Shown: positions 33,407-54,795 of the stretch, piece by piece | Layout: every line of letters begins with the position of its first letter | Numbering within the stretch: position 1 is the stretch's first letter | Origin: Alkalispirochaeta sp. | Lineage (GTDB): Bacteria; Spirochaetota; Spirochaetia; DSM-27196; Alkalispirochaetaceae | Length of the DNA stretch: 64,000 bases | Reading direction: 5' to 3' | Assembly (NCBI GenBank): GCA_965601925.1 | Contig: OZ271854.1 | Span: forward strand, 2,144,001 to 2,208,000 | Notes under the pieces: generated by a model | Told to the model about the DNA's origin: nothing | The model's database searches: none | What the model saw: the letters and a program-made list of their open reading frames with translations, nothing else | Position numbers and translations under genes: made by a program

Positions 33407-33554
33407 GAGGACCTCCTTGGAAAGGATATACTTGTGTATATACTATCATGAAACAGATCGCTCATCCAGAGAAGCCGATGCAACAATGCGTTGTATAAAT
33501 TGTCGCGTCTTTTTTCTTTTTGTTGATGATTTCACTCTTCGTATGCGACGCGCC

Positions 33555-33645
33555 GTCTAACACTGAGCTGACCCGCAAGATGCGGCCCGGAGTCGCGTAG
33601 CGGCGGAATGATTGGCGTGGCGGTTGCGTACGCGAGCGCCGTGAT
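33555..33645 (-). repeat. Long-type attC-like site, R'' half lost
   Basis: GTCTAACACTGAGCTGACCCGCAAGATGCGGCCCGGAGTCGCG nearly identical to the array attC; lies immediately upstream of vapBC. Confidence 0.7.
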
Positions 33646-33826
33646 GATATGAGAACGCCGCACCCCACCGTACAAGGTGAGGTACCCTTACCTCGTACAG
33701 CGTTCATATCCCGCGCGGAAGGAGGTGCAACCATACGCAGTATATCGCCTTTGATTCGCACAAGCGATATACGTGTGCATCGGCCGAAGATCACGACACC
33801 GGTGTGATCGTTGACCGGAGGATCGA

Positions 33827-38957: not shown

Positions 38958-39758
38958 CTAGACCACTGCTTGAGTGAGTCCGTCCTCAAAGCTTCGCCAG
39001 ATTTCTTCCGGCGTGTGATTGCCAAGCGAGCTGTGTGGCCGGTACCGATTGTACTCATCGCGCCACAAAGCCAGTTTCTCCTGAGCGTCCCTCACGCCCA
39101 GGAACAGGTTCTCGTTGAGGAACTCGTCGCGTAGCTTTCCGTTGAAGCTCTCGACAGAGGAGTTCTCGATCGGCTTGCCCGGCGTGATCAGACACTGCTG
39201 AATGCCGCGCTGGATCGTCCACGCGATCATGGCCCGGGACGTGAACTCCGGCCCGTTATCACTCTTCAAACATTCCGGCTCACCGTGCATGATCGTCGAT
39301 TGCTCCAACGCCCGGATGACATCAGCGCTCGAACATGAACGAGCAATTCGTGCTGTGATCAGATACCGTGTGTACTCGTCCAACACGACCAGACACTTCA
39401 ACGACCGTCCGGATTCAGTCGTGTCGAAAACGAAATCCAATCCCCAGATCTGATTGGGCCGCATCGCTGCACTGGCCCTATTGCGCTGCACGATGAGCTT
39501 CTTCCGGCGTCGTGAGCGGAGCATCAACTGTTCCTCGCGATAGATCCGGTACACTTGCTTGTGATTCGCTTCACTATGGTCTCGCCGCAGTAACACGTGG
39601 ATCCGACGATACCCGAACCGCTTGTGCCTCTCGGCCAGTTCCTTGATGCGCGCCCGAATCCGAAGATCGTTCGGTTTCTTTGCCTCATACCGACATGTCG
39701 ATCGATGCAGCGACGCCAGTTCGCACGCTCGTCGCTCACTGACCCCATGGTGTTTCAA
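38958..39758 (-). CDS. IS3 transposase OrfB (rve DDE domain)
   Basis: FGYRRI, W.LDF, SDNGPEF, ESFNGKLRDE, YN..RPHSSLG; probably fused to OrfA by -1 frameshift at AAAAAAC near 39800. Confidence 0.92.
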   Translation of the reverse strand: MKHHGVSERRACELASLHRSTCRYEAKKPNDLRIRARIKELAERHKRFGYRRIHVLLRRDHSEANHKQVYRIYREEQLMLRSRRRKKLIVQRNRASAAMRPNQIWGLDFVFDTTESGRSLKCLVVLDEYTRYLITARIARSCSSADVIRALEQSTIMHGEPECLKSDNGPEFTSRAMIAWTIQRGIQQCLITPGKPIENSSVESFNGKLRDEFLNENLFLGVRDAQEKLALWRDEYNRYRPHSSLGNHTPEEIWRSFEDGLTQAVV

Positions 39759-39793
39759 CGCCCCGACAGCCGATCGTCGCTGATGAGGCGTCG

Positions 39794-40057
39794 TCAGTTT
39801 TTTGACAGCACCTCCTTCATCGCGTCGATCTCAAGCGCCTGGTTGGCGACCAGCCTTTTCAGTCTGGTGTTCTCGTCTTCCAGTTCTTTCAGTCGCCGCG
39901 CCTCGCTGGTGGTCATTCCGCCATAGCGAGATTTCCACCGGTACAACGTATTCTCCGCAAACCCGTACTTCCGACAGATCTCCTTCGCCGGAACACCGGA
40001 CTCGGCTTCCCCCAAGATCGCAATGATCTTCTCGACCGAATACTGCCCCTTCTTCAT
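39794..40057 (-). CDS. IS3 transposase OrfA
   Basis: HTH EICRKYG..TLYRWK.RYGG and RLKELEDEN.RLK zipper. Confidence 0.92.
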   Translation of the reverse strand: MKKGQYSVEKIIAILGEAESGVPAKEICRKYGFAENTLYRWKSRYGGMTTSEARRLKELEDENTRLKRLVANQALEIDAMKEVLSKN

Positions 40058-40129
40058 AATGTCTCTCCCTCCTGTTATATCCGGGAAAGACCCACCTTCC
40101 TGCTGGACCAGTTTTCAGGGAGCAGGTCA

Positions 40130-40241
40130 GAGGTGCGACACGAATCCTCTTTTTCATGTGTTAAGGTCGAACGAAGTGAGCCCGAAGGGCTTGGCCTTTA
40201 CACATGAAAACGAGGGCGTACAATGAAAAAACTGCGGGAGG
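40130..40241 (+). promoter_or_regulatory. Conserved hairpin element, copy A (Frpo/ssi-like candidate)
   Basis: Stem 40145-40166/40195-40216; TTTACA-16 nt-TACAAT on the 3' arm; directly abutted by IS3. Confidence 0.55.
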
Positions 40242-40290
40242 ACCTTTCGGTTTGGGCGATTATGCGAAGTAGGCTGTTCTGGTATATCGC

Positions 40291-40602
40291 CTACATCGCC
40301 CGTTGTTCCGGGAGTTTCCCAATGATCTTGCGAACTTCGTCGGTCTCAACGAGTTGATCCGTCACATATCGGTGGACGATTGAACTGATGAGCGTTTGAT
40401 AGGGGATTCCTTCCTTGACCGCCTTTTTTTTCGTCAATTGCAGATCCTCTTCCGAAATTCGCAAGCTAATAGTCTGCGTCTTTCGCGCCCGATCGAGAAT
40501 GGCTTCAATCCGTTCGCGTTCTTCACCAACGACACTTTCCATCTGATCGATGGAATCTTCGATTTCTTGTTCTTCAGGCGTCAGGTCAAATATGTTCATC
40601 AC
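40291..40602 (-). CDS. BrnA/CopG-like antitoxin
   Basis: ISLRI...L...K.KA..EGIPYQTLI.S. Confidence 0.85.
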   Translation of the reverse strand: MMNIFDLTPEEQEIEDSIDQMESVVGEERERIEAILDRARKTQTISLRISEEDLQLTKKKAVKEGIPYQTLISSIVHRYVTDQLVETDEVRKIIGKLPEQRAM

Positions 40603-40862
40603 GAGCCTCCATATTGTTTGTGGTATTTCCGGCTTGGGAATGCCGTTTTCAGGACGACAGCTTCATCGTCATCGACGACAAATGGAACAATCCAGGTGTA
40701 ATCACGCATTCGAAGCACGAAGTATCGTTGTCCCGGCCGGGTCGGATTTTTGATGATATCGACATATCGCTTTTCCATGATGATGCCGGCAATTTCTTCA
40801 AATGAGACGCCGCGAGTTTGCTTGAGTACCTCATTTTTGTCCTCGTCCCAGATGATTTTCAT
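40599..40862 (-). CDS. BrnT-like toxin
   Basis: WDEDKN..LK..RGVSFEE, LKTAFPSRK. Confidence 0.85.
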   Translation of the reverse strand: MKIIWDEDKNEVLKQTRGVSFEEIAGIIMEKRYVDIIKNPTRPGQRYFVLRMRDYTWIVPFVVDDDEAVVLKTAFPSRKYHKQYGGS

Positions 40863-41012
40863 TCGGTATCATGATACATCCAGCGTATATACATTGTAAA
40901 CAATCGCATCGATCAATGTGTTACGAACGTTCTCCGGGATGCGTGTGCTTTTGCATTTTGATCTGGTAGAGGCTATTTCTTGGTGATTTGCGCTTAGGCT
41001 CCGCCGGGCGCA

Positions 41013-41134
41013 ATGTAACACCGAGCTGACCTGCAAGATGCGGCCCGGAGTCGCGAAGTGACGGAGGGATTGGCGCGTGCCTTGCGCATCGCAAGGCGCG
41101 TGACAAAGCAGATTGACTGGTCCAGCGTTATGTT
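41013..41134 (-). repeat. Long-type attC site, IS inserted at R''
   Basis: Minus-strand R' GTTACAT at 41013-41019; original R'' displaced to 42797-42803. Confidence 0.88.
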
Positions 41135-42796
41135 GAGACTGTCGCACAACGCAGTCGTGGTCTGCTAGCATCGTGCCTGGGAGGAGCCAATGCCGAACTA
41201 CCGAGGAAACGAGGGGCAGGATCTCATGATTCCGGTGTGCCTGGATGATCAGCTGGTGCCGGGTACCATCGAACACGCCATCACCTGGATCGTCGACCAC
41301 GAGATCGATACGTCGGTGTTCGATGCAGCCTATCACAACGACCACGGCGGTCGCCCGGCCTGTGATCCGGCCGCGCTGGTGAAGATCATCTTGTTCGCCT
41401 ACTCCCGGGGCATCCTCTCCTCACGGAAGATCGAGGAAGCCTGCCGGACCAACATCGTGTTCATGGCCCTCAGTGGTGATATCCGGCCCGACCACGCCAC
41501 GATCGCCCGGTTCGTTACCGGCCATCCCGCGGCGGTTCGTCGTGTGTTCCGGGATGTGCTGATGATTGCGGCACAGGGCGATCTGATCGGTGGGGACGTG
41601 TTTGCACTGGACGGCTGCAAGATCAGCTCGAACGCCGCCCGAGAGCACGCGGGGACGCGACGGGAACTGGAGAAGAAGAGAGCGAAGCTTGAAGCACGTC
41701 TTGAGGCGATACTGCTCACTCATCGCGGCGCAGATGAGGCATGCACCTCCGATAACGACGATCAACAGGGCAGACCCGGTTCAGGGACAGCTGATCGCTA
41801 CCGGGCGCAGATCGACCGCATCAAAGGATTCCTCGACGCCCATCCACCCCGCACCGGCACCAGCGGACGCGAGGTGAAATCCAACATCACCGACAATCAG
41901 AGTGCCACACTGAAAACCGGGAGTGGCTACATCCAGGGCTATAACGCGCTGGCGATGGTGGATGCGAAGCACCAGATCGTGCTACACGCTGAACCGGTCG
42001 GTCAGATCCATGAGGCACCGCTGCTGCCACGGATGGTGCGCCGGTCACTGCATACACTGCGCAGGTTCGCACATCCCCAGGCCTGCACACCGACCATCCT
42101 CGCTGATACCAACTATTTCACCGAATCCAACGCCCGGTTCCTGATCGACTCTGATCTCGACGGCTATATCCCCGACCATCAGTTCCGGAATCGGGACATG
42201 CGATTCGCGGATCGGAGTCGATCGCGCCGGGCGGCACACCGGCGCTTCACCCAAGCCGATTTCCTCTACCAGAGCGACACCGACAGCTATCGTTGTCCGG
42301 CCGGCAAGACGTTGCGACGGCGCACCCGGGAGGTGGTTGCCGGGCGTCGTGGTACGCGCTATGAAGCGAAGCAATCAGACTGCAGTGCATGCGATCTCAC
42401 CTCCCGCTGTCTGATCCGTACTGCAACCCGGCGTAGACTCTTCCGCGGTGACGGTCCAGCCGGGACCTATGCCCAACAGATGCGTGATCGGATCGACACC
42501 GAACGGGGTCGACGGATGTACGCCAGACGCATGGGTATCGTGGAGCCGGTCTTTGCGAACATCACCGCCACCAAGGGCATGCGACGATTCACGCTCCGAG
42601 GCCGGGCGAAGGTCCGCATTCAATGGCTCCTGTACACGCTGGTGCACAACATCGAAAAGATCGCCACCACCGGGCTGATTCATCGGTTAGTCGGAGTTTG
42701 ATCCGGGTGGGTGGCGGGTTGAAGAATGCCTGGCCACGATCACTGGCCGTGAACTACTCGCTCCGCGTGGGTTCCCACGCGTTGTGCGACAGCCTC
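41135..42796 (+). mobile_element. IS1182-family element, copy 1 (1662 bp)
   Basis: 18-bp IRs GAG(A/G)CTGTCGCACAACGC; GTT direct repeat on both flanks. Confidence 0.92.
41190..42701 (+). CDS. IS1182-family DDE transposase
   Basis: GRPACDP, SSRKIE, PDHATIARF, ALDGCK, ADTNY, CPAG, VEPVF, HNI. Confidence 0.93.
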   Translation: MPNYRGNEGQDLMIPVCLDDQLVPGTIEHAITWIVDHEIDTSVFDAAYHNDHGGRPACDPAALVKIILFAYSRGILSSRKIEEACRTNIVFMALSGDIRPDHATIARFVTGHPAAVRRVFRDVLMIAAQGDLIGGDVFALDGCKISSNAAREHAGTRRELEKKRAKLEARLEAILLTHRGADEACTSDNDDQQGRPGSGTADRYRAQIDRIKGFLDAHPPRTGTSGREVKSNITDNQSATLKTGSGYIQGYNALAMVDAKHQIVLHAEPVGQIHEAPLLPRMVRRSLHTLRRFAHPQACTPTILADTNYFTESNARFLIDSDLDGYIPDHQFRNRDMRFADRSRSRRAAHRRFTQADFLYQSDTDSYRCPAGKTLRRRTREVVAGRRGTRYEAKQSDCSACDLTSRCLIRTATRRRLFRGDGPAGTYAQQMRDRIDTERGRRMYARRMGIVEPVFANITATKGMRRFTLRGRAKVRIQWLLYTLVHNIEKIATTGLIHRLVGV

Positions 42797-42916
42797 GTTA
42801 CATTGCGACCTGCTTACCAGTATACGAGGAGATTTCCTGTTCTTCTTCTCTTTTTCACCGAGTGGCTGAAGCACCACGGTCAACCACCCGGTAATGATTA
42901 TTGGAATGGGGCCTTT

Positions 42917-43183
42917 CTATGAGGCCTTTTCTTGGCGGTGCGTCTGCTTGCCGGCGCGCGCCGCCACTTTGAAGATACATCCGTCGCACTGACCCTTTGT
43001 GCTTTTGCACCTGCAAGCGACGCATACGTCATAGAGATCATAATCATCAATCGCATCGAGGATGAGGCGATTCAGTGTCCTTGTCATTGGCTCATTCTTG
43101 AACCACGCCATTCGCCTGAGAGCAAACACCGCATCGCGGCTCACCTTGGGGACATACGTACCGGCAGTTTTTGTTGTGTGCAT
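42917..43183 (-). CDS. 88-aa RHH-like, Cys-rich hypothetical protein, copy 1
   Basis: GGAGGTG RBS before ATG 43183; YVPKVS..AVFALRRMAW...PMT..L; C..C.C......C..C; paralog at 54529. Confidence 0.8.
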   Translation of the reverse strand: MHTTKTAGTYVPKVSRDAVFALRRMAWFKNEPMTRTLNRLILDAIDDYDLYDVCVACRCKSTKGQCDGCIFKVAARAGKQTHRQEKAS

Positions 43184-43223
43184 TTTCTGCACCTCCATAA
43201 TGAGATGTATGCGAGACAACTCT

Positions 43224-43342
43224 CGCACCGGAGGTGCGACACGAATCCTCGTTTTCCTGTGTCAAGGTCGAACGCAGAGAGCCCGAAGGGCTTGGCCTTT
43301 ACACAGGGAAACGAGGACGTAGAATGAAAAAACTGCGGGAGG
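43224..43342 (+). promoter_or_regulatory. Conserved hairpin element, copy B (Frpo/ssi-like candidate)
   Basis: TCCTCGTTTTCCTGTGTCAAGG / CCTTTACACAGGGAAACGAGGA stem; TTTACA-16 nt-TAGAAT. Confidence 0.55.
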
Positions 43343-43413
43343 AAATCCTGGTTTAGGCAATTACGCGAAATAGGCCGATTCGGTTTTTGCTTGTGCCGCC
43401 CATCGATGCGTTA

Positions 43414-43812
43414 CTATTTCGCCCAGTTTTCGATATCCAGGCCGTTTATTCGCTCGAAGTGTTTTTGATTGTTCGTTACCAATATCAAATTGTGAGTGAG
43501 CGCCGTTGCAGCGATCAGCAGATCCATATCGGCGACAATATTTCCTTGCTTCTCTAATGACGTTTTGATTTCTCCGAATGTCTCAACCACGGCGGGGGTG
43601 ATGTCTATGATCGGAAACAATTCAGCAATCCGGTATGCTCGAGCAAGATTCTTTTCGACTGCCTTCGATTTCTTAGCTCCGTACACAAGTTCGCCATACG
43701 TGATGACCGATAACGATTTTGGCGAGTTCCGGTATTCATGGAAATTCTGCTTCACTCGTTCATCGCCTTTCAGGCTATAAATGACGATGTCGGTATCGAT
43801 CAAATAGTTCAT
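43414..43812 (-). CDS. vapC: VapC PIN-domain toxin
   Basis: YLIDTD, GELVYG, DLLIAATA, VTNN.KHF. Confidence 0.93.
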   Translation of the reverse strand: MNYLIDTDIVIYSLKGDERVKQNFHEYRNSPKSLSVITYGELVYGAKKSKAVEKNLARAYRIAELFPIIDITPAVVETFGEIKTSLEKQGNIVADMDLLIAATALTHNLILVTNNQKHFERINGLDIENWAK

Positions 43813-44074
43813 TTGTATTTGTAAATCGCGCTGATTCAGTTCGTCCGTTTCGAATGGATTTCACAATATCTTCGGCCGATCGATCATCTTCCCAACTTCC
43901 AGATAGTTTCAGAAATTCATCAGTTGGATTGATATCGAAGGCGCGAGGGAGGGACAGATATTTTTCCAGGATATGGACGACTTCTTGACTGATTGAACGT
44001 CGTTCTTTTGATGCGCGAACGCGCAACGATTCATAGAGTTTTTCGTCGATATCACGTACTTGCAAATTGGCCAT
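43775..44074 (-). CDS. FitA-like RHH antitoxin
   Basis: MANLQVRDIDEKLYE.L..RA....RSISQEV; GGAG RBS. Confidence 0.88.
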   Translation of the reverse strand: MANLQVRDIDEKLYESLRVRASKERRSISQEVVHILEKYLSLPRAFDINPTDEFLKLSGSWEDDRSAEDIVKSIRNGRTESARFTNTNELFDRYRHRHL

Positions 44075-44240
44075 AGGTTCTTCTCCGAGTCTCAGTATAC
44101 ATCCATTCATGAATTATGTGTAGATTTGCATGATTCCCATCGTGTGGTCTGGGAATTACGATTAAAGCATTCTCGCACCAGCATTTTGATCTGGTAGAGG
44201 CTATTTCTTGGTGATTTGCGCTTAGGCTCCGCCGGGCGCA

Positions 44241-44362
44241 ATGTAACACCGAGCTGACCTGCAAGATGCGGCCCGGAGTCGCGAAGTGACGGAGGGATTG
44301 GCGCGTGCCTTGCGCATCGCAAGGCGCGTGACAAAGCAGATTGACTGGTCCAGCGTTATGTT
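44241..44362 (-). repeat. Long-type attC site, IS inserted at R''
   Basis: Identical to 41013-41134; original R'' at 46025-46031. Confidence 0.88.
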
Positions 44363-46024
44363 GAGACTGTCGCACAACGCAGTCGTGGTCTGCTAGCATC
44401 GTGCCTGGGAGGAGCCAATGCCGAACTACCGAGGAAACGAGGGGCAGGATCTCATGATTCCGGTGTGCCTGGATGATCAGCTGGTGCCGGGTACCATCGA
44501 ACACGCCATCACCTGGATCGTCGACCACGAGATCGATACGTCGGTGTTCGATGCAGCCTATCACAACGACCACGGCGGTCGCCCGGCCTGTGATCCGGCC
44601 GCGCTGGTGAAGATCATCTTGTTCGCCTACTCCCGGGGCATCCTCTCCTCACGGAAGATCGAGGAAGCCTGCCGGACCAACATCGTGTTCATGGCCCTCA
44701 GTGGTGATATCCGGCCCGACCACGCCACGATCGCCCGGTTCGTTACCGGCCATCCCGCGGCGGTTCGTCGTGTGTTCCGGGATGTGCTGATGATTGCGGC
44801 ACAGGGCGATCTGATCGGTGGGGACGTGTTTGCACTGGACGGCTGCAAGATCAGCTCGAACGCCGCCCGAGAGCACGCGGGGACGCGACGGGAACTGGAG
44901 AAGAAGAGAGCGAAGCTTGAAGCACGTCTTGAGGCGATACTGCTCACTCATCGCGGCGCAGATGAGGCATGCACCTCCGATAACGACGATCAACAGGGCA
45001 GACCCGGTTCAGGGACAGCTGATCGCTACCGGGCGCAGATCGACCGCATCAAAGGATTCCTCGACGCCCATCCACCCCGCACCGGCACCAGCGGACGCGA
45101 GGTGAAATCCAACATCACCGACAATCAGAGTGCCACACTGAAAACCGGGAGTGGCTACATCCAGGGCTATAACGCGCTGGCGATGGTGGATGCGAAGCAC
45201 CAGATCGTGCTACACGCTGAACCGGTCGGTCAGATCCATGAGGCACCGCTGCTGCCACGGATGGTGCGCCGGTCACTGCATACACTGCGCAGGTTCGCAC
45301 ATCCCCAGGCCTGCACACCGACCATCCTCGCTGATACCAACTATTTCACCGAATCCAACGCCCGGTTCCTGATCGACTCTGATCTCGACGGCTATATCCC
45401 CGACCATCAGTTCCGGAATCGGGACATGCGATTCGCGGATCGGAGTCGATCGCGCCGGGCGGCACACCGGCGCTTCACCCAAGCCGATTTCCTCTACCAG
45501 AGCGACACCGACAGCTATCGTTGTCCGGCCGGCAAGACGTTGCGACGGCGCACCCGGGAGGTGGTTGCCGGGCGTCGTGGTACGCGCTATGAAGCGAAGC
45601 AATCAGACTGCAGTGCATGCGATCTCACCTCCCGCTGTCTGATCCGTACTGCAACCCGGCGTAGACTCTTCCGCGGTGACGGTCCAGCCGGGACCTATGC
45701 CCAACAGATGCGTGATCGGATCGACACCGAACGGGGTCGACGGATGTACGCCAGACGCATGGGTATCGTGGAGCCGGTCTTTGCGAACATCACCGCCACC
45801 AAGGGCATGCGACGATTCACGCTCCGAGGCCGGGCGAAGGTCCGCATTCAATGGCTCCTGTACACGCTGGTGCACAACATCGAAAAGATCGCCACCACCG
45901 GGCTGATTCATCGGTTAGTCGGAGTTTGATCCGGGTGGGTGGCGGGTTGAAGAATGCCTGGCCACGATCACTGGCCGTGAACTACTCGCTCCGCGTGGGT
46001 TCCCACGCGTTGTGCGACAGCCTC
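44363..46024 (+). mobile_element. IS1182-family element, copy 2
   Basis: Same IRs, length and GTT duplication as copy 1. Confidence 0.92.
44418..45929 (+). CDS. IS1182-family DDE transposase
   Basis: Protein identical to copy 1. Confidence 0.93.
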   Translation: MPNYRGNEGQDLMIPVCLDDQLVPGTIEHAITWIVDHEIDTSVFDAAYHNDHGGRPACDPAALVKIILFAYSRGILSSRKIEEACRTNIVFMALSGDIRPDHATIARFVTGHPAAVRRVFRDVLMIAAQGDLIGGDVFALDGCKISSNAAREHAGTRRELEKKRAKLEARLEAILLTHRGADEACTSDNDDQQGRPGSGTADRYRAQIDRIKGFLDAHPPRTGTSGREVKSNITDNQSATLKTGSGYIQGYNALAMVDAKHQIVLHAEPVGQIHEAPLLPRMVRRSLHTLRRFAHPQACTPTILADTNYFTESNARFLIDSDLDGYIPDHQFRNRDMRFADRSRSRRAAHRRFTQADFLYQSDTDSYRCPAGKTLRRRTREVVAGRRGTRYEAKQSDCSACDLTSRCLIRTATRRRLFRGDGPAGTYAQQMRDRIDTERGRRMYARRMGIVEPVFANITATKGMRRFTLRGRAKVRIQWLLYTLVHNIEKIATTGLIHRLVGV

Positions 46025-46039: not shown

Positions 46040-48031
46040 TTAGGCGCCTTGATACCATTCTGACGGTATTAACTTGCGTCCGGCACGCCATTCCTCAACC
46101 TCATGTATATTCCCTATTTCGCCGTATATGCTTTTATCTGCGTGATCCAGAATGATGGCCTGCCATTCGCCATCACTTTCTGCCACGGCATCGGCAAGTG
46201 TACGGAAAATTTGCCTTACAGCTTGCTCATCATCTTCGTCATCGTATCGAGAATCCTCTTCTTCTACTTCCTCACCGCTCTTTACCTTAGGGAAATAGAC
46301 CTGACTTGGCTGATCAAATACGGCGAAACTCGGTACTACCGACCAGCTTTGCTCTAAAAAAAATTTTTGAAGCGCGCATATCAGAGCTAAATGGAAGGAA
46401 ACCCAGTTTGATGCGCTGCCAATTTCTGACAAATAATGCCAGTTTCTATCGGTACTTATTACCTGCATATTCAAGTCTTTAACGTTCAATGACGGTGGTG
46501 TTTCGCGGTATTTTGCTTCTACGTCTAAAGTTTGAAGATAGTTCAAAATGTATTGCGAAATACGCATTTTAGCCGCAGAGAGACGCCTTTCCACCGCTTT
46601 AGGATCAATAACTTGCAAAAGATGCTCTCGGCGGGCTACAAGAGTTGCAATACGTTCTTCGAGCTCGCCACCGGCTTGAAGCTTTTCAAATGTTTCAACC
46701 GAGGCTTTCAGATGGCCCAAGAACAAAAAAAGAGTTTTTGCCTTTTGAAACTCTTCCTTTGTTTTTTGGTCACGAAGAAACAGCGTGTCATACCGATCTC
46801 TTAGAATTCTTTGCTCCTCGATTAAGCTTTCAAGTTCTTTATTTAAACGTTCTTCTTCTCTGTCGAATGATGTCGGGATTTCCTCAACGCGCTTCGACTC
46901 GGCTTCATATTCCTCGAACACCGAAGCTATTCTTGACATTTCTTCACTACTTCTTGGATGATCATCGCTTCCACATAGAGGGCAGACCTTGGCATCAGAG
47001 GCCAGATCTGTTAGCCAGTTGGAAATATGCAACCTGTCAGAACGTCTTTTTACAGTCACGCTATACTCTGTTAGACTGGTCTTAAGCTGCTTCACGTCGT
47101 CGAGTCGTTTACGTAGCTTTGCCAATCGCTGGCTTAAATCATCCTCTTCCTTGTCTAATTCAATTAGCGCCTGACTCGCTTTTTGAAAATTACTTAACTC
47201 TGCAATTGAATAATTCGGGGCCTCTTGGACTAGTTGTCTTGCGATTAGGATTAGTTCGTCTGGGTCCGAAACATCTCGTGGGTCTCGATCGAGCAAACCA
47301 TATTGTTGGGCTATTCTGAGTTGCCCCTGTAGATTATTCGACCACGATTTTGAGTGAGCTTTCGCTCGTTCAAAATCGCGTTCAAGTGCTTTTAGACGCT
47401 GTTCGAGCTCCTGCAGTTCCTGTCTAGCTTTCAGAACCTCTATATTCTCTGCGCCCAGTATGAAAGGAAGCCAGTTGCGAAGTCGTTCGCGATGTTCATG
47501 AGCATGCGTTTTATAGAATAGGATGTTCTGATTTGCGACTATGTCTTGGCTTTGAAAGACCAACGCAACCAAATCTCGGAAGCCCAAACGTGCTTGATAG
47601 GCTTTTCTTTCGAACTCGCCCTCGAGAGAAAAATATGGCACATTGGAAATTGTGTTTAAGATGTTTTTGACCCCTTCGGGGTTCTCGTTGGCCGTTTCAA
47701 TGACGGGGGGAACTGAAATTTCCTTTGCGCGGGTCACATAGAAATTTGAAGACACCTTATTGTCTTTCGGCACGGCACGAGCGATAAGAATTTGCTCAGA
47801 TTGTGTTTGAAATGCGACACCGTACCAGGAGGCATAGTCGCGTATGACATCAATAGGCACATTACATTCTGTTGAAGCAAGACAGTAATCAATCAGTGGT
47901 ATTATTGCAGATTTTCCTGTTCGAGATGCGCCGGTTATCACGTTCAGCTTTCCTGGTACAAATTCAACAACTCTTGGTGGGAATGTTGAATCGATTGGCC
48001 AAATTAAAACTTTTAACAGTTGGAATTGCAT
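46040..48031 (-). CDS. lmuB: Lamassu/ABC-3C SMC-like ATPase (LmuB, DUF3732-like)
   Basis: Walker A GASRTGKS, coiled coils with CPLC hook, IGSASNW signature, FDQPSQVYFP, LDHA; TAATG coupling to upstream gene. Confidence 0.85.
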   Translation of the reverse strand: MQFQLLKVLIWPIDSTFPPRVVEFVPGKLNVITGASRTGKSAIIPLIDYCLASTECNVPIDVIRDYASWYGVAFQTQSEQILIARAVPKDNKVSSNFYVTRAKEISVPPVIETANENPEGVKNILNTISNVPYFSLEGEFERKAYQARLGFRDLVALVFQSQDIVANQNILFYKTHAHEHRERLRNWLPFILGAENIEVLKARQELQELEQRLKALERDFERAKAHSKSWSNNLQGQLRIAQQYGLLDRDPRDVSDPDELILIARQLVQEAPNYSIAELSNFQKASQALIELDKEEDDLSQRLAKLRKRLDDVKQLKTSLTEYSVTVKRRSDRLHISNWLTDLASDAKVCPLCGSDDHPRSSEEMSRIASVFEEYEAESKRVEEIPTSFDREEERLNKELESLIEEQRILRDRYDTLFLRDQKTKEEFQKAKTLFLFLGHLKASVETFEKLQAGGELEERIATLVARREHLLQVIDPKAVERRLSAAKMRISQYILNYLQTLDVEAKYRETPPSLNVKDLNMQVISTDRNWHYLSEIGSASNWVSFHLALICALQKFFLEQSWSVVPSFAVFDQPSQVYFPKVKSGEEVEEEDSRYDDEDDEQAVRQIFRTLADAVAESDGEWQAIILDHADKSIYGEIGNIHEVEEWRAGRKLIPSEWYQGA

Positions 48032-48534
48032 TACAAGACAACCTTCAGGTATTGTGCCGCCGATGAAACACTTATTTGGGAAAACCATTTGCCGAGAATT
48101 TGTGCTTTTTCCCCATTTTTCATATGCATTTCATTAATTAACCCTCTTTTTATATTCCCATATTCATGAATTCGTGGATAAATCTTTGCGGAATCTTTAT
48201 CCCAAACTATAAGCCCCGACTTTATTGCAATATCAATTGCCGAAATTGTTACGCTTCGCTTCTTTTTTATTCTTTCTTGTAGAGAAACCAGCAAATCGAT
48301 TTCTTTCTTCTGCTCGAAACCTCTTACGTAAGACTGAAGGCTTTTCCGGCGATTATTAACAGAAAGCAAGAAATGATCGGTTGTGAGCAGTGGATACGCC
48401 ATGAAGTGTAATAATGCCACAGGAGCGTCTCCAGTTGAATGATGACTAACGAAACCAACAGTGAAGTTCCAGAGTTGGTATGCTCCTATCACTGGAGAAT
48501 TCCAGTTTCTAACTTCATCTACTAAGCTTTCCAT
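48031..48534 (-). CDS. ABC-3C middle component (LmuC-like)
   Basis: NSP.IGA..L..F, PLL, A..LGKWF; lies between effector and ATPase. Confidence 0.8.
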   Translation of the reverse strand: MESLVDEVRNWNSPVIGAYQLWNFTVGFVSHHSTGDAPVALLHFMAYPLLTTDHFLLSVNNRRKSLQSYVRGFEQKKEIDLLVSLQERIKKKRSVTISAIDIAIKSGLIVWDKDSAKIYPRIHEYGNIKRGLINEMHMKNGEKAQILGKWFSQISVSSAAQYLKVVL

Positions 48535-48546
48535 GTTTTGCTCTCT

Positions 48547-49692
48547 CTATGCTTTTTGAATCAAGTTTTGCCAGCGTGGATGCCAACCCAGGAGTTCGTT
48601 ATCTGCTAATGTATGATACGTCCCCGCAATGGTTGAGCTTGGAGGAGGCATGTTCCTTATTGTTGCTTGATGAGTTGAGCAATCAAGTAGCAACAGTTGT
48701 CCTCGGACTTCTTCGGGTTTGTCTTGTTGAGTTAGAAAAATTCTCTTTTTTGAATGGACCCAGAACTCCGATAACTTGTTCTGAAAATCCACAGCGGAGT
48801 CCTCGTCTATGATTTCATTTTCGATCCACTTTTGACGGTTGACTTTCGCCTTTAGAAACGCAGTGACCGACTCAACAATCTCTTCTTCTGTGCAGTCAAT
48901 TAGTTCTAACTGTTTAATATATGAAGGGCGTAGCTTTAATTGCATTTTTTTCATTTTATCGTCGATAGGATCTATCAAAGTGAAATCTATCAACTCTCTT
49001 TGTCGCACACGATCAAAAAGAACGGATTTCTCTTTGTAAAAATCGTCCCAAGTAATGCAAGCTATTTGGTTTTCAGCGATCATTTCGGTCAGTGTATTGT
49101 GCAACCAGCCAGTAAGATTTTGAACAAGGAAAGGGATTTGGGTTTCAGGTACAAGTATTCGCTTTAGTTCGTCACGTACTTCATCTAAGCCCGCACCGTC
49201 TCCTATTATTAAACTAAATTTCTTAATTATTTCAATAAATAAATTTTCATTATTCAATAAATAGCTATAATATTTCCAAATATTGTGTTCATTATTAATA
49301 TCAGAGAAGCCTTTCTTGATTTCTGAAATAACTTGACGAGCGTCATCGGTATCTTTCGCAGAATTTAGTCTATTAACAAGGGCTGGCTTACCATGATTGT
49401 TGGCGTAGAGAATGAAGCATGTGGTTTCCGTGTCAATATTGCTTTCTTGAACAAGAATTGCCCAGTTATAAAATGTTTTCCAAAGATTTGTAGATCTATC
49501 TGTTAAAGGATTTCCCAGGACTGAGGACTTATCTTCCTCAGAAACCATATCTCCTTCACGAGAAGTTACAGATACATCTCCATTGAACTCAACATATACA
49601 GTTCCACCGGGGCCAGTACGCAATAAGTGAAAAAGTGCTCGAGGAATTTGGATAGAATAGCCCAGAAATTGACCAGATGCATTCGAACTCAT
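48547..49692 (-). CDS. ABC-3C effector (LmuA-like; Cap4-type nuclease N-terminus plus C-terminal domain)
   Basis: A.GQFLGY..Q, VE..GDV, EEDKS, LTDRS.NLWKT..NW; C-terminal G.YH.LAD....GWHP.W. Confidence 0.78.
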   Translation of the reverse strand: MSSNASGQFLGYSIQIPRALFHLLRTGPGGTVYVEFNGDVSVTSREGDMVSEEDKSSVLGNPLTDRSTNLWKTFYNWAILVQESNIDTETTCFILYANNHGKPALVNRLNSAKDTDDARQVISEIKKGFSDINNEHNIWKYYSYLLNNENLFIEIIKKFSLIIGDGAGLDEVRDELKRILVPETQIPFLVQNLTGWLHNTLTEMIAENQIACITWDDFYKEKSVLFDRVRQRELIDFTLIDPIDDKMKKMQLKLRPSYIKQLELIDCTEEEIVESVTAFLKAKVNRQKWIENEIIDEDSAVDFQNKLSEFWVHSKKRIFLTQQDKPEEVRGQLLLLDCSTHQATIRNMPPPSSTIAGTYHTLADNELLGWHPRWQNLIQKA

Positions 49693-49844
49693 AAATCTGC
49701 AACCTTAGTAATTCTATGCCAACCTCGTAGATAGTCAAATAGTAATATCGACGTTACAAAACCATCTCGCCAATATTAAACACATCGGGCCAGCGTCATT
49801 GTTTAGCATCCTCCATCGTGAAGAATCTTACCTGCTCTAAAGCC

Positions 49845-49961
49845 ATATAACACCGAGCTGACCTGCAAGATGCGGCCCGGAGCCGTAGGCGGAGGGATTG
49901 GCGCGGTTTTTGCGCACGCAAAAGCCGTGACAAAGCAGATTGACTGGTCCAGCGTTATGTT
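49845..49961 (-). repeat. Long-type attC site, IS inserted at R''
   Basis: R' GTTATAT; original R'' ACATAAC at 51624-51630 overlaps the upstream stop codon. Confidence 0.88.
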
Positions 49962-51623
49962 GAGACTGTCGCACAACGCAGTCGTGGTCTGCTAGCATCG
50001 TGCCTGGGAGGAGCCAATGCCGAACTACCGAGGAAACGAGGGGCAGGATCTCATGATTCCGGTGTGCCTGGATGATCAGCTGGTGCCGGGTACCATCGAA
50101 CACGCCATCACCTGGATCGTCGACCACGAGATCGATACGTCGGTGTTCGATGCAGCCTATCACAACGACCACGGCGGTCGCCCGGCCTGTGATCCGGCCG
50201 CGCTGGTGAAGATCATCTTGTTCGCCTACTCCCGGGGCATCCTCTCCTCACGGAAGATCGAGGAAGCCTGCCGGACCAACATCGTGTTCATGGCCCTCAG
50301 TGGTGATATCCGGCCCGACCACGCCACGATCGCCCGGTTCGTTACCGGCCATCCCGCGGCGGTTCGTCGTGTGTTCCGGGATGTGCTGATGATTGCGGCA
50401 CAGGGCGATCTGATCGGTGGGGACGTGTTTGCACTGGACGGCTGCAAGATCAGCTCGAACGCCGCCCGAGAGCACGCGGGGACGCGACGGGAACTGGAGA
50501 AGAAGAGAGCGAAGCTTGAAGCACGTCTTGAGGCGATACTGCTCACTCATCGCGGCGCAGATGAGGCATGCACCTCCGATAACGACGATCAACAGGGCAG
50601 ACCCGGTTCAGGGACAGCTGATCGCTACCGGGCGCAGATCGACCGCATCAAAGGATTCCTCGACGCCCATCCACCCCGCACCGGCACCAGCGGACGCGAG
50701 GTGAAATCCAACATCACCGACAATCAGAGTGCCACACTGAAAACCGGGAGTGGCTACATCCAGGGCTATAACGCGCTGGCGATGGTGGATGCGAAGCACC
50801 AGATCGTGCTACACGCTGAACCGGTCGGTCAGATCCATGAGGCACCGCTGCTGCCACGGATGGTGCGCCGGTCACTGCATACACTGCGCAGGTTCGCACA
50901 TCCCCAGGCCTGCACACCGACCATCCTCGCTGATACCAACTATTTCACCGAATCCAACGCCCGGTTCCTGATCGACTCTGATCTCGACGGCTATATCCCC
51001 GACCATCAGTTCCGGAATCGGGACATGCGATTCGCGGATCGGAGTCGATCGCGCCGGGCGGCACACCGGCGCTTCACCCAAGCCGATTTCCTCTACCAGA
51101 GCGACACCGACAGCTATCGTTGTCCGGCCGGCAAGACGTTGCGACGGCGCACCCGGGAGGTGGTTGCCGGGCGTCGTGGTACGCGCTATGAAGCGAAGCA
51201 ATCAGACTGCAGTGCATGCGATCTCACCTCCCGCTGTCTGATCCGTACTGCAACCCGGCGTAGACTCTTCCGCGGTGACGGTCCAGCCGGGACCTATGCC
51301 CAACAGATGCGTGATCGGATCGACACCGAACGGGGTCGACGGATGTACGCCAGACGCATGGGTATCGTGGAGCCGGTCTTTGCGAACATCACCGCCACCA
51401 AGGGCATGCGACGATTCACGCTCCGAGGCCGGGCGAAGGTCCGCATTCAATGGCTCCTGTACACGCTGGTGCACAACATCGAAAAGATCGCCACCACCGG
51501 GCTGATTCATCGGTTAGTCGGAGTTTGATCCGGGTGGGTGGCGGGTTGAAGAATGCCTGGCCACGATCACTGGCCGTGAACTACTCGCTCCGCGTGGGTT
51601 CCCACGCGTTGTGCGACAGCCTC
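49962..51623 (+). mobile_element. IS1182-family element, copy 3
   Basis: Same IRs, length and GTT duplication. Confidence 0.92.
50017..51528 (+). CDS. IS1182-family DDE transposase
   Basis: Protein identical to copies 1 and 2. Confidence 0.93.
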   Translation: MPNYRGNEGQDLMIPVCLDDQLVPGTIEHAITWIVDHEIDTSVFDAAYHNDHGGRPACDPAALVKIILFAYSRGILSSRKIEEACRTNIVFMALSGDIRPDHATIARFVTGHPAAVRRVFRDVLMIAAQGDLIGGDVFALDGCKISSNAAREHAGTRRELEKKRAKLEARLEAILLTHRGADEACTSDNDDQQGRPGSGTADRYRAQIDRIKGFLDAHPPRTGTSGREVKSNITDNQSATLKTGSGYIQGYNALAMVDAKHQIVLHAEPVGQIHEAPLLPRMVRRSLHTLRRFAHPQACTPTILADTNYFTESNARFLIDSDLDGYIPDHQFRNRDMRFADRSRSRRAAHRRFTQADFLYQSDTDSYRCPAGKTLRRRTREVVAGRRGTRYEAKQSDCSACDLTSRCLIRTATRRRLFRGDGPAGTYAQQMRDRIDTERGRRMYARRMGIVEPVFANITATKGMRRFTLRGRAKVRIQWLLYTLVHNIEKIATTGLIHRLVGV

Positions 51624-51624
51624 G

Positions 51625-54306
51625 TTATGTTGATTCTTTGAGAGCGTACTTTCGCTCCCTCTTTTCGAATGCCTCGACACCACCCTCAAGGTTTAATAGC
51701 GAGTTTCGGTGGGATAGGTCTTCAATTGTAGCAAAGTCGACGTTGGTCTTAGCCTCGGGCATTGATAAGATAGTAGTTAGCTCGGCGTCAGCATTGACTA
51801 CAATGTTGGCATTGTGTGTAGCGAATATCATCTGCCGTGAAGACTTCTTTTCCTTGATCAGGTCAACCAGGTAGTTCGCGATCAAAGAACTATCTAGATG
51901 GGCCTCTGGTTCATCAATGATGATTGGGTTATTTCCAAACAACAACAGAATCACGATCACCGTCGTGCAACGTTGACCAAACGAGGACGCTTCGATTGGC
52001 CGTCCTCGATATCTCACATTGACTCGAATCACTTCGTTAAAATCGAAATAGGCGACTCGTGCAAGATGTTTATAAATCGAAAAATTAATCTCATCGGCGA
52101 ATACCTTCGCAAGATATCGTCGAGAATTTGTGTCCCCAACAACGTGGTTACGTAAGTCATCTATGGATACACTCTCGTCTATTAGTGCTTTCGGATCGAT
52201 TCCAAACAGACACTCTTTGACCCTATCAGACCTATAGTTGAACTCTGTTCCCAAATCACCGAAATGATCTATGAAACGCGCGAACAGATTCTCTGTTGCT
52301 GTTTCTTCGTCTATCCCTACATTCAGTTCGATTCTATCAATTTCGTTTGGATTACTCCTGTTAACGTTCTCCAAAACTGATTTCAATGCGCCTATTTCGT
52401 TGGTGACTACACTAACCAGGTTGTTGAATGAAGCTTGAAGCTTCGATTCATCGTGTTCCTCAATCTGATCGTCGATCATCGATATCCGCGAATCAATATC
52501 GTCAAGTTCGGCTGATAGAGAATCAACGAGGCTCCCTGAGTTCTTTATATCTTCTATGTTCTCAGGTGTTACTCCGATTCCCTCAAGATATTGACCCAGT
52601 TCGTCTTGTCTTTCTCGATGTTGAGTCTGGAGTTTATTTTCAGTCTCGATTTCTTTATCGAAGATAGACTCGGACAGGAACGATGTGTGTAGCTGCGAGA
52701 GCCCTTTCAAAAACTCGTTATATGCGACCAGATAATGGGAGCTATCTTCATTGTTTTGGACTGGAGGATGGTTCTTAAGCAACTCATTGACGTCATCTCT
52801 CAGTCTTTCCAAACGTGTTCGTTCGGCCCTAATACCGACAAGTTTTCTATTAGATTCGGTCACGGAATCGTTCAGGGTTTTGTAGTCGTCTCCTTCAATT
52901 GTCGCTGATACTTTCTTGTTGCTGTCTAAACTCAAGACAATACGACGACGTTCAGTGATTGCCTGTTGCTTCTCGACTAATAGACGGATGATATCTTCTA
53001 CTTCGGAAGTAGCTGTTGTTACAGCCAGTTCTTTCTCCGCGACATGAGAGTTACGGCGTCGAATCCGATCGTAAATGGCGTCGGTGAACTTCCGAGGATT
53101 GGTGGCATATTCTTCGATCTCGTTCTGTTCGAGAAACTCTAACCCCTCCGCTGAGTGGTCCACCTGAACAAAATCCGAATGACTTACATTTGAACCATCG
53201 GGGGTGATCGTGTTTTCCTTGTTAAACGTTGTAGAGGCCCCACTACGGATTACATCGACCAGCACGTTGAGCAAAGTGCTTTTCCCGGTTCCCCGGCCCC
53301 CGGTTACACACGTCAGAAAGGGACTAAGTTCCCAGTCTATCCTTACACCGGCGAAACAGAATGTCGAAGGTTCCGTACCGGTTCTGTTGATGATCACATT
53401 TTCGGGATAGTCCATATTCATTCTGGTTATACGTTTAGGCGCAAAAGGAGGACGAGCCTCGCCGATCTTTACTCTGTGCGCAGGCTCGAAGAAGACCTGG
53501 CGGAGCCCTTCAAAAGTTAGATCAGCTTTTATCCAAGTGATGTCTTTGTGGATTTGGCCGTTTTCTTCGCATCGTTTTCCGAGATAGTGATCAAGATCGT
53601 CGAACGAATGAGCATCGCTTCCAGAAAAAACGGGTTTGGGTATTGATGCCGAACTTGAGTCATCATATCGATTGGCAGACAGAAACCATTCAACGTTCTG
53701 TGATCCACCAAAAAATCCATCGGAAATCTTATCGATCTCATCGCTTATTATGCGTTTGCGTGGAGATTTGGAATCCGCTCGAATACCGGCATTGTTTGCG
53801 GCGGCAAGAATAAGAAATGGACGCATATCACCGAATACTTCGTGGAGTTTTTCTAATACTTCATGCTGGTTGACGCATGCAGAGACATATTCCGAAGGTT
53901 CGAGCTCAATACAAGATACTCTTGCGCCGTTTATAGTTTTGGATATCTTCAACTCATGCAGAAATCTCTCGATCTTCGACCGATCAAGTTGACTATCGAA
54001 AATGACATGGAGGTTTACCTCTTCCGCTGCTTTGTTGACTGACACATCAAGACGAAGCTCGATATTCGGGAAAAAAACTTTACCTGAGTTGGGATAAAGG
54101 CGCTTGTATTCGCTTAGGAACTCGAAATGACGGGCGACGGAGAAATAGTCGGTGATTCCAAACGCAATAACATCTGATTCATGAAGTTTGCGACAAAAAT
54201 CAACCAGACTGTTAGCGTTTGTCGCCAAATCGTAGCCGTCATTGAGATTTGTACCCGGAGGATGCACATGCAGATCCCATTTCCGCCAAATGGACCCGGT
54301 TGACAT
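51625..54306 (-). CDS. PHP phosphoesterase fused to ABC-type ATPase (Ppl/TrlF-like, probable anti-phage)
   Basis: WDLHVH, GITDY, NIELR, HVIF, GSDAH, TWIKAD.TFEGL; GGRGTGKST, SFGQR, IDEPEAHLD, ATHNAN. Confidence 0.85.
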   Translation of the reverse strand: MSTGSIWRKWDLHVHPPGTNLNDGYDLATNANSLVDFCRKLHESDVIAFGITDYFSVARHFEFLSEYKRLYPNSGKVFFPNIELRLDVSVNKAAEEVNLHVIFDSQLDRSKIERFLHELKISKTINGARVSCIELEPSEYVSACVNQHEVLEKLHEVFGDMRPFLILAAANNAGIRADSKSPRKRIISDEIDKISDGFFGGSQNVEWFLSANRYDDSSSASIPKPVFSGSDAHSFDDLDHYLGKRCEENGQIHKDITWIKADLTFEGLRQVFFEPAHRVKIGEARPPFAPKRITRMNMDYPENVIINRTGTEPSTFCFAGVRIDWELSPFLTCVTGGRGTGKSTLLNVLVDVIRSGASTTFNKENTITPDGSNVSHSDFVQVDHSAEGLEFLEQNEIEEYATNPRKFTDAIYDRIRRRNSHVAEKELAVTTATSEVEDIIRLLVEKQQAITERRRIVLSLDSNKKVSATIEGDDYKTLNDSVTESNRKLVGIRAERTRLERLRDDVNELLKNHPPVQNNEDSSHYLVAYNEFLKGLSQLHTSFLSESIFDKEIETENKLQTQHRERQDELGQYLEGIGVTPENIEDIKNSGSLVDSLSAELDDIDSRISMIDDQIEEHDESKLQASFNNLVSVVTNEIGALKSVLENVNRSNPNEIDRIELNVGIDEETATENLFARFIDHFGDLGTEFNYRSDRVKECLFGIDPKALIDESVSIDDLRNHVVGDTNSRRYLAKVFADEINFSIYKHLARVAYFDFNEVIRVNVRYRGRPIEASSFGQRCTTVIVILLLFGNNPIIIDEPEAHLDSSLIANYLVDLIKEKKSSRQMIFATHNANIVVNADAELTTILSMPEAKTNVDFATIEDLSHRNSLLNLEGGVEAFEKRERKYALKEST

Positions 54307-54446: not shown

Positions 54447-54528
54447 CTTGGTTTTCGAAATAGCGTTTTTTACCGAGTGGCTGAAGCACGAAGCCCAACC
54501 ACCCGGTAATAACTAATGGGACTAAGCC

Positions 54529-54795
54529 TTACGAGGCTTTTTCTTGGCGGCATGTTTGCTTGTGGGCGCGTGCCGCCACTTTGAAAATGCATCCATCGCA
54601 TGGACCCTTCGGACTTTTGCACCGACAGGCGGCGCAGACATCATAGAGGTCATAATCATCGATTGCATCGAGAATGAGGCGATCCAATGTCCTGGTCATT
54701 GGCTCATTCTTGAACCACGCCATTCGCCTGAGAGCAAACACCGCATCGCGGCTCACCTTGGGGACATACGTACCAGCGCCAATCTTTTTGTGCAT
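54529..54795 (-). CDS. 88-aa RHH-like, Cys-rich hypothetical protein, copy 2
   Basis: Close paralog of 42917-43183 with the same RBS context and length. Confidence 0.8.
   Translation of the reverse strand: MHKKIGAGTYVPKVSRDAVFALRRMAWFKNEPMTRTLDRLILDAIDDYDLYDVCAACRCKSPKGPCDGCIFKVAARAHKQTCRQEKAS

Follow-up and report, generated by a model that had tools for sequence, protein, structure and literature searches.

Promoters that act from folded single-stranded DNA (ssDNA) are reportedly represented by the Frpo/ssi elements of Masai and Arai (1997), and to our knowledge experimental proof of ssDNA promoters is confined to IncF and IncI plasmids; we know of no cis-element of integrons that reads the single-stranded state as an expression signal. 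In the minus-strand origin of the Ff filamentous phages and in the ssoA-type single-strand origins of rolling-circle plasmids, the viral or displaced strand folds and host RNA polymerase is engaged through promoter-like hairpins, and small DNA hairpins with purine-rich 3-nt loops serve as single-strand signals in the promoters of the N4 virion RNA polymerase and as d(GCGNAGC) mini-hairpins. The element described here, a hairpin of ~120 nt, lies in integron cassettes of Alkalispirochaeta sp. (GenBank assembly GCA_965601925.1), within a 64,000-nt stretch of contig OZ271854.1 (positions 2,144,001 to 2,208,000 of the forward strand, hereafter the window), and precedes a small gene for a protein of 88 amino acids (aa), named ORF88. 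Published reports place Frpo/ssi promoters of classes 1–3 in the leading regions of IncF and IncI1 plasmids and describe them as inactive in the duplex form and as possible primers (PMC11541004, PMC12672017, PMC7736820), Frpo being described as both promoter and primer (PMC7736820, PMC12672017).

On balance, we are inclined to regard the hairpin as a new structural class of ssDNA promoter or primer hairpin, which travels with ORF88 and which would lie here on the bottom strand of the attC recombination sites, a view drawn from sequence comparison. A literature search, outside which most subscription journals lie, found no paper on a ssDNA promoter in integron cassettes or on the letters of the motif.

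Results

A search of this genome (G000, 5.05 Mb) with covariance model R1 finds the hairpin four times, always on the + strand, namely the three copies in the window that the original prediction had located (A, B, and C) and a fourth (D) outside it. Each copy lies between the 3′ end of a toxin–antitoxin (TA) gene pair and the start of ORF88, with the genes on the minus strand (Table 1). The long hairpin with the inner AGCCC-GAA-GGGCT is present in both sequence and fold, as are the compensatory change (TCATGTG/CACATGA versus TCCTGTG/CACAGGG), accompanied by one T·G wobble, and, on the 3′ arm, the TTTACA opposite TGTCAA, followed after 16 nt by TAGAAT, TACAAT, or TACCAT. In the tip of copy B, helix P1 (GTCAAGGTC/GGCCTTTAC) is accompanied by two mini-hairpins, of which the first (43270-43279) is degenerate in this copy and the second (43280-43292) is the AGCCC-GAA-GGGCT. 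The -10-like hexamer, which the original prediction placed outside the stem, belongs to a bubble that a covarying outer helix closes; the fold leaves five of its six bases unpaired, and it is directly followed by the purine-rich GAAAAAAC (43326-43333). A long outer stem as in F Frpo does not form in the DNA fold, the 8-bp helix being all that closes the structure.

Selection acting on this fold, with a preference for one strand, is indicated by several comparisons. The DNA fold z-scores of the + strand range from -3.6 to -6.2, with 0/200 shuffled sequences folding as well, and the minus strand folds too (z -2.9 to -5.8). Strand bias was assessed over 29 non-duplicate tip instances from this genome, metagenomes, plasmids, and viral contigs, from which the duplicated loci (L001, L002, L004, L010, L012, L014, L018, and L032) and those not matching the search expression (L020, L022, and L024) were omitted, L039, L042, and L044 being counted once with L036. 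Over these instances, 131 G·T pairs form on the strand of the search pattern (the + strand) versus 34 on its complement, and 27 of the 29 fold more stably on the pattern strand, L017 and L045 being the exceptions. In an alignment of 21 tips, 82.0% of the cells are paired versus 69.8% after shuffling (28–42% in slid controls), and the covariation score is 0.334 versus 0.146, a value reached by 0/500 shuffles. The first mini-hairpin covaries, with stems GCGC/GCGC, CGCC/GGCG, TGC/GCA, and GGCC/GGCC, and has A-T in place of G-C in window copies A and C; the second has a CCC/GGG stem that is invariant in 21/21 and a G-N-A loop that admits all four bases at N. Both loops of the tip are C(GNA)G triloops, N varying freely in the conserved second one. 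Such triloops are exceptionally stable as DNA, so that the chemistry of the tip points to DNA rather than RNA as the folded molecule; together with the G·T bias, it agrees with the strand-specificity first claimed for the + strand.

Covariation extends to the whole element. In seven ORF88-linked hairpins, the consensus fold has 34 pairs, 18 of them with compensatory changes, and 92.0% of the cells are paired versus 78.3% after shuffling, with 0/500 shuffles as high; the outer helix covaries in three of its five pairs, and the bubble is conserved on its 3′ side, which holds the -10-like hexamer and the purine-rich stretch, and not on its 5′ side. Covariation among homologs, which had been named as a check on the hairpin, is therefore strong, and the element has the long imperfect hairpin selected on one strand that characterizes ssDNA promoters.

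The boxes on the 3′ arm, TTTACA-16-TAGAAT in copy B (43298-43325) and TTTACA-16-TACCAT in copy C (54917-54944), score 9–10 of 12, and a promoter scan of these two copies revealed no other sigma-70-like site within ~350 nt on either strand. TTGAC or TTTAC is conserved across the hairpin family. Among the 29 instances, TAnnnT occurs 15–19 nt after TTGAC in 12 on the pattern strand versus 1 on the complement, and at least four of six matches to TATAAT are found at that place in 9 versus 1; 41% of the bases of the best -10 hexamer and 23% of those of the spacer are unpaired. The hairpins of ORF88 relatives carry TTTACN or TTGATA, then, after 15–17 nt, a -10-like hexamer, which is TATAAT at three loci, TACAAT at two, TATACT at one, and GATACT, GATACA, GATAAG, GATATC, or ATACCC at one locus each; the group in filamentous prophages has NACGCT or GATGCT at 15 nt, a poor -10. 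As originally claimed, the fold is so arranged that RNA transcribed from the folded strand would run into ORF88; the boxes stand on the arm that directs the folded form at genes for which the same strand is the template, and the -10 lies where the arms are mismatched, as in ssDNA promoters.

The partner of the hairpin is ORF88 and not, as first proposed, the TA pair. The ORF88 family occurs in 13 of the 401 genomes of a class-wide sample, this one included, which gives 17 loci in 12 other genomes. Model R1, built without these 17 loci, finds the hairpin upstream of the ORF88 relative in 13 of them, 40–100 nt from the start codon; the better-scoring hairpin strand is opposite to the gene in 12 of the 13 and ambiguous in L077. 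The four misses are L065, L067, L072, and L080, of which L072 has a weak partial match, and L065 and L067 have only 216 and 126 nt of contig before the gene. The position downstream of a TA pair, said to be constant, holds for the four copies of this genome and fails for the relatives elsewhere. One variant with a single mini-hairpin (L059, G099 C38, 1096-1561; TTTACA-16-TACAAT) is set antisense to a 120-aa ORF and ~40 nt before it; a two-gene pair follows, the second product of which is MazF/PemK-like by eye. The hairpin is therefore not restricted to ORF88.

The ORF88 protein matches no family in Pfam or NCBIfam. Its family alignment conserves YTPxxS...LRRxAW...PMTKTL plus CxxC...CxxC, and its N-terminus is predicted to be ribbon-helix-helix-like from a structure model with a mean predicted local distance difference test (pLDDT) score of 78, for which the Foldseek matches in the PDB are weak (E at least 0.85) and all to ribbon-helix-helix repressors (Arc, CopG); a search of the Atlas with the same model returned unnamed clusters and ribbon-helix-helix leads below 0.9. 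There are 17 close homologs (80–97% identity) and 39 representatives at E up to 0.001; tblastn against plasmids and phages gave no match, and a scan of the JGI metagenomes with the ORF88 alignment gave 291 pattern hits, of which 0 were confirmed. Just past the ORF88 stop codon, a second conserved hairpin is seen on the minus strand (42857-42892, ACCGGGTGG...CCACTCGGT; repeat family D10, by eye), in the regions 42851-42915 and 54466-54530 of the window and in L003 (1125-1190); its minus-strand form includes a G·T pair and a loop with GTTGGGC, no T-run accompanies it, and it may be a 3′ structure of the RNA.

The integron integrase gene (IntI) of this genome is at G000 3568638-3569561 on the + strand (396.7 bits versus a cut-off of 265); below it in coordinates lie minus-strand cassette genes, among which are hairpin copy D and a fifth ORF88 copy, E. 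The window, at a distance of 1.4 Mb from IntI, represents a second array. A family of 125-nt attC-type sites, scored by covariance model R2 at 31–143 bits and also present in G207, a genome of another family, has the + orientation in both arrays. The base of these sites is atypical, consisting of a 7-bp ACATAAC/GTTATGT helix followed by 4–5 unpaired bases on the 5′ side only. Because this atypical spacer allowed no call of the bottom strand from extrahelical bases, the orientation of IntI was used instead; in G389, an attC match on the opposite strand comes after the first cassette ORF behind intI, which fixes the orientation of R2 as that of the bottom strand. From the two orientations together, the + strand is probably the attC bottom strand here, which is also what the original prediction had inferred. 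The hairpin strand and the attC orientation coincide in this genome, in G207, where the module is 73 kb from IntI, and in G389, where the distance is 10.5 kb, and an IntI match was obtained in 8/8 other tested genomes with the hairpin or the module of hairpin and ORF88 (split in G099). Other module loci adjoin tyrosine integrases, insertion sequence (IS) elements, defence-type genes, or a phage capsid gene. In the window, the attC-bounded unit consists of a TA pair, the hairpin, ORF88, and the second small hairpin, the long hairpin not being at the cassette boundary. The cumulative GC skew has its minimum at 1.6 Mb, at dnaA (1593905), and its maximum at 3.8–4.0 Mb, which makes the + strand the lagging-strand template at both arrays.

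Among the individual copies, D has a Phd/ParE pair as does C, and in A an IS3-family insertion has taken the place of the left flank and of ORF88. ORF88 copy E (L013, G000 3562171-3565434) has no hairpin, the gap lying exactly between two 9-bp direct repeats (ACCGGAGGT), both of which are present in copies C and D (hairpin-less junction in L013 ~1800-1830); ParE there has lost its stop codon and is extended by 38 codons into the ORF88 start region, ORF88 itself being intact. Since the loss of the hairpin removes the ParE stop, it looks like a deletion and not like an empty site. Neither of the two kinds of match that had been named as fatal to the prediction appeared: Rfam gave 0 matches in the window at the gathering threshold, one chance microRNA match only in 42700-43500 at E up to 10, and no match on the motif in six related loci, and the element does not qualify as a miniature inverted-repeat transposable element (MITE) or a repetitive extragenic palindrome (REP), having only four copies, all beside ORF88, with no flanking duplications at copies A and B. 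Three near-identical copies of an IS with a 503-aa DDE transposase (DDE_Tnp_1_6) are located at 41090-42750, 44318-45980, and 49917-51580, each abutting an attC-type site, and the array also holds defence-type cassettes, an ABC-three-component system (DUF3732, MC3, CTD7) and an 893-aa AAA_21/ABC-type ATPase, at 46040-49692 and 51625-54306.

Table 1. Positions of the hairpin copies, of the parts of copy B, and of neighboring features (window coordinates, except where G000 is given).
Feature	Position	Strand	Description	Basis
Element copy A	40130-40283	+	tip 40160-40201, TTTACA 40197-40202, TACAAT 40219-40224	
Element copy B	43231-43384; hairpin 43220-43341	+		sequence, DNA fold, covarying consensus fold
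Element copy C	54850-55003, with outer flank from 54838	+	tip 54880-54921, TTTACA-16-TACCAT 54917-54944	
Element copy D	G000 3557485-3557604	+	outside the window	genome search
Outer helix (copy B), 8 bp	43220-43227 with 43334-43341	+	CTCTCGCA with TGCGGGAG	fold
Bubble (copy B), 13x13	43228-43240 with 43321-43333	+		fold
Main stem (copy B), ~20 bp	43241-43269 with 43294-43320	+		fold
Y-shaped tip (copy B)	43261-43302	+		alignments of 26 and 21 tip instances
-35-like TTTACA (copy B)	43298-43303	+	3′ arm, in stem beside tip, paired opposite TGTCAA	
-10-like TAGAAT (copy B)	43320-43325	+	16 nt after the -35-like hexamer	
3′ tail of element (GGTTTAGGCAATT...)	43342-43384 in copy B	+	conserved in copies A-D	
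ORF88 copy B	42917-43183	-	88 aa; ribosome-binding site GGAGGTG, reverse complement of 43190-43196	
ORF88 copy C	54529-54795	-	89% identical to copy B	
BrnT-like toxin and CopG-type antitoxin	40599-40862 and 40291-40602	-	upstream of copy A	Pfam
FitA-like antitoxin and PIN/VapC toxin	43775-44110 and 43414-43812	-	gene-strand upstream of copy B	Pfam
Phd/YefM antitoxin and ParE toxin	55316-55588 and 54989-55309	-	upstream of copy C	Pfam
IS3-family element	38958-40129	-	orfA 39794-40057, orfB 38958-39758; cuts copy A on its left	
attC-type site	55658-55783	+		repeat families D4, D7; genome BLAST; covariance model R2
attC sites of the same family	18831-18960, 33550-33680, 41008-41138, 44236-44366, 49840-49965	+		as for the preceding site

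Relatives of the tip occur in other mobile DNA. The exact 20-mer of the tip has two hits in 185,579 species genomes, both by chance, and eight loci in the JGI metagenomes, of which five, L017 and L018 (on one contig), L019, L022, and L023, have a 42-nt core in common, L020 resembles them in part, and L021 and L024 are likely chance matches. The two tips of L017/L018 are 4.9 kb apart, on the gene strand upstream of a Rep_trans gene, and L050 likewise has a tip upstream of a Rep_trans gene. A gapped pattern found the tip in 19 viral contigs, and BLAST of the tip region against a phage collection gave no match. In seven filamentous-prophage loci recognized through Pfam (L034, L035, L040, L046, L047, L049, and L051), the tip is just past the secretin gene and on the gene strand, and it is followed by a G2P Rep gene in six of the seven, L040 ending before that point; L038 was placed in this group by sequence similarity only. 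Next to IS110-family transposase genes (L022 1290-1430, L023 1790-1930, and L041 2470-2580), a ~135-nt hairpin with internal loops, which contains the tip, stands directly 3′ of and antisense to the gene, and judging from this layout the folded form would fire outward over the end of the element and, in a circular intermediate, into the transposase gene.

The tip was also found by BLAST in several plasmids, including a 1.7-kb RepL plasmid, four Ralstonia rows and one Comamonadaceae row (E = 0.6) being left out. A MOBF plasmid of Burkholderia has three copies on the strand antisense to the genes for ssb, a methylase, a DUF3560 protein, and kleA; these genes point towards those for the coupling protein and relaxase, and the tips are upstream of the presumed oriT. 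By analogy with F, the strand that carries the tips may be the transferred strand of a leading region. The listed neighbors of a second Burkholderia copy are not on the templated strand, and in plasmids of Mycetohabitans and Methylocystis the next gene is on the opposite strand, 5′ of the hairpin. The tip is therefore antisense to neighboring genes in three plasmids (the leading-region setting was checked for one of them), and the same tip is found in elements that pass through a single-stranded stage. Among these relatives, the prophage tips, on the gene strand, and those of the MOBF plasmid, antisense to the leading-type genes, lie on the strand that becomes single in the life cycle of the element; for the window copies, the corresponding strand would be the probable attC bottom strand. 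Another repeated leading-region element, in three copies in the Burkholderia plasmid NZ_CP013423 (L031) and at position 4376 of L026, is antisense to genes in all copies; its two mini-hairpins, GCCC-GAA-GGGG and CTCGC-AAA-GCGAG, have the triloops GAA and AAA, and it may serve as a further single-strand signal.

Discussion

The predicted action of the hairpin begins when the + strand is single and folded, in which state it would mimic an open promoter and could be bound by the housekeeping RNA polymerase. The template would be the 5′ arm and the 5′ flank, on the 5′ side of the loop, and a minus-sense RNA would run from near 43229, a position derived from the geometry, towards lower coordinates, through a leader of ~45 nt with a GGAGG site into ORF88; the same RNA might serve as a primer for synthesis of the complementary strand. 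Once the DNA has become double-stranded, the boxes would point towards the 3′ end of the toxin gene and ORF88 would be silent or reached by read-through only. Recognition by the polymerase, the start site, and silence of the duplex are points that we infer from the sequence. The single strand could be supplied by excision of the cassette as bottom strand, by uptake in conjugation or transformation, by extrusion of the hairpin, or, in this genome, by the lagging-strand template. A wider reading, which we regard as doubtful, is that cassettes carry their own promoter active in the single strand only, which would switch on a small DNA-binding protein and prime the second strand whenever the bottom strand is unwound, excised, or taken up, coupling expression to mobilization, and that the Y-tipped hairpin is a widespread, hitherto undescribed entry site for host polymerase in filamentous phages, rolling-circle replicons, plasmid leading regions, and IS110-type elements. 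Should the hairpin work as the plasmid ssDNA promoters do, it would add a compact, easily recognized class, marked by a Y tip of two GNA triloops, a -35 within the stem, and a -10 inside a closed bubble, which extends across several kinds of mobile DNA, and it would bring the device to integrons, whose recombination already uses folded single strands; it would also offer a handle on the fate of an excised or incoming cassette before it is double-stranded, and the ORF88 protein, ribbon-helix-helix-like with four conserved cysteines and of no named family, would be a candidate 'first-expressed' factor.

Several observations weigh against a promoter confined to the single-stranded bottom strand of cassettes. 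Read as double-stranded DNA (dsDNA), TTTACA-16-TAGAAT makes a good ordinary promoter in the direction of higher coordinates, which the original prediction, in its account of the duplex, had overlooked, and the side towards which it points has a co-oriented ORF in 5 of the 12 ORF88 loci other than our own. ORF88 copy E survives intact without the hairpin, and the conserved 3′ tail (43342-43384) has no explanation in the model. In L063 of G222, the nearest attC site is opposite to the hairpin strand, leaving agreement in 3/4 genomes, and the module of hairpin and ORF88 also occurs in loci without a recognizable array; for these two reasons, the tie to cassette excision specifically is something that we infer. 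Moreover, the hairpin strand is the leading-strand template in 4/4 other complete genomes (G133, G160, G207, and G389, with the terminus assumed opposite dnaA), which rules out exposure at the replication fork as a general trigger. The prophage and rolling-circle cases do not discriminate, because Rep lies in the direction of the dsDNA promoter as well, and in larger viral contigs (the L036 type with four contigs, L037, and L045) most or all called ORFs are co-oriented with the pattern strand, so that the fold-back geometry points at no gene there.

The principal rival, which we consider unlikely though more credible than those that follow, is an ordinary divergent control region in dsDNA, in which TTTACA-16-TAGAAT fires to the right, giving a short RNA or reading a neighboring gene, while the long inverted repeat serves the ORF88 protein as operator and ORF88 is read leftward from a weak, unrecognized promoter or by read-through from the TA genes. 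The boxes are near-consensus in the linear sequence, ORF88 is weakly predicted to be Arc/CopG-like, a right-hand ORF is co-oriented at the five loci just mentioned (e.g., DUF2971 in L063, where the attC orientation fits too), and Rep is downstream in the dsDNA direction in both the prophages and the Rep_trans cases. However, the next ORF on that side is convergent in all four copies of this genome and at 7 of the 12 other loci, the G·T pairs are biased to one strand (131 versus 34), known ribbon-helix-helix operators are short repeats, and the mini-hairpins of the tip, the bubble, and the covarying outer helix would have no role in a duplex operator; nor does this arrangement account for an element antisense to neighboring genes in three plasmids. 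A single-strand initiation site for priming only, at which polymerase or primase starts the complementary strand and no ORF88 mRNA is made, would fit the tip in small rolling-circle replicons and its place in the prophages, between homologs of genes IV and II, where the minus-strand origin lies on the Ff map, and GNA mini-hairpins are found at known priming sites. We nonetheless find it improbable, since the tight and oriented link to ORF88 (13/17 loci plus the four copies here, 40–100 nt from the start) fits a promoter and not an origin, and a dedicated origin would be of no evident use to chromosomal cassettes. Priming is, in any case, not exclusive of a promoter role, both being reported for Frpo (PMC7736820, PMC12672017).

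Still less probable is an element acting at the RNA level in the minus-sense mRNA, as a leader, a processing site, or an attenuator placed between the TA operon and ORF88, in which CACCUCC could mask the ribosome-binding site GGAGGUG. The minus strand does fold (z as given above), its CGCACCTCCGGTGCG is complementary to the ribosome site, with alternative pairings available, and this stretch is kept in copies B, C, and D and in L061; it is absent, however, from L063, L070, L075, and L071, and no Rfam family matches at either threshold used. Because the wobble pairs are on the other strand, the minus-sense RNA would have C·A mismatches, and the orientation of homologous tips to the genes, sense or antisense, differs between elements, so that one RNA sense cannot fit them all. 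Least probable of the four, in our judgment, is a recombination or mobility site, whether an odd attC, a target or end of an IS110-family element, or a remnant of a miniature transposon. Its layout of outer helix, unpaired spacer, stem, and variable tip recalls attC, one subgroup with CCAAC...GTTGG in the outer helix was flagged by a crude attC scan, the tip is just 3′ of IS110-family transposase genes in L022, L023, and L041, and one copy has been lost between 9-bp direct repeats. Against this, the window copies have no basal AAC/GTT boxes and are not matched by R2, the element is upstream of the gene with which it travels whereas attC lies downstream, its four copies all stand beside ORF88, with neither terminal repeats nor target duplications at A and B, and the loss in copy E, which removes the ParE stop codon, is deletion-like. 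The reading as a ssDNA promoter or primer hairpin is thus the one that we retain in comparing the element with described systems.

With Frpo/ssi, the element shares a long hairpin of one strand, boxes on the arm that aims the folded form at genes templated by the same strand, and a -10 in a mismatched region, and relatives of its tip are antisense to genes in the ssb–kleA region of a MOBF plasmid, upstream of the transfer genes. It differs in having no sequence similarity, as judged from the F Frpo fold and from the Frpo sequence table of PMC11541004, in which the tip motif CCCGAAGGG does not appear; the F Frpo region is a hairpin of ~330 nt with a different tip, whereas the element here is ~120 nt long, has a Y tip of two GNA triloops, and belongs to chromosomal integron arrays with no adjoining oriT. 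The resemblance to attC consists in a folded bottom strand (the same strand in 3/4 genomes) and in the order of outer helix, unpaired spacer, stem, and variable tip. The window copies, however, lack the RYYYAAC/GTTRRRY boxes, the bubble is 13x13 as against a central spacer of ~5–6 nt in attC, R2 gives no match on the element, and it is upstream of its gene and moves with it; the R″/R′ boxes and the position at the cassette 3′ end that mark an attC site were not found, with CCAAC/GTTGG in the outer helix of one subgroup as the nearest approach. The Ff minus-strand and ssoA-type origins, compared by layout, are approached by the tip relatives that filamentous prophages carry between their secretin and Rep genes and by those that precede Rep_trans genes, whereas the element here is set at a fixed short distance before a gene, with no replicon attached. 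Finally, the N4 promoters are used by a phage polymerase and have no -35 and -10, in contrast to the boxes of the present hairpin, which fit the host sigma-70 type.

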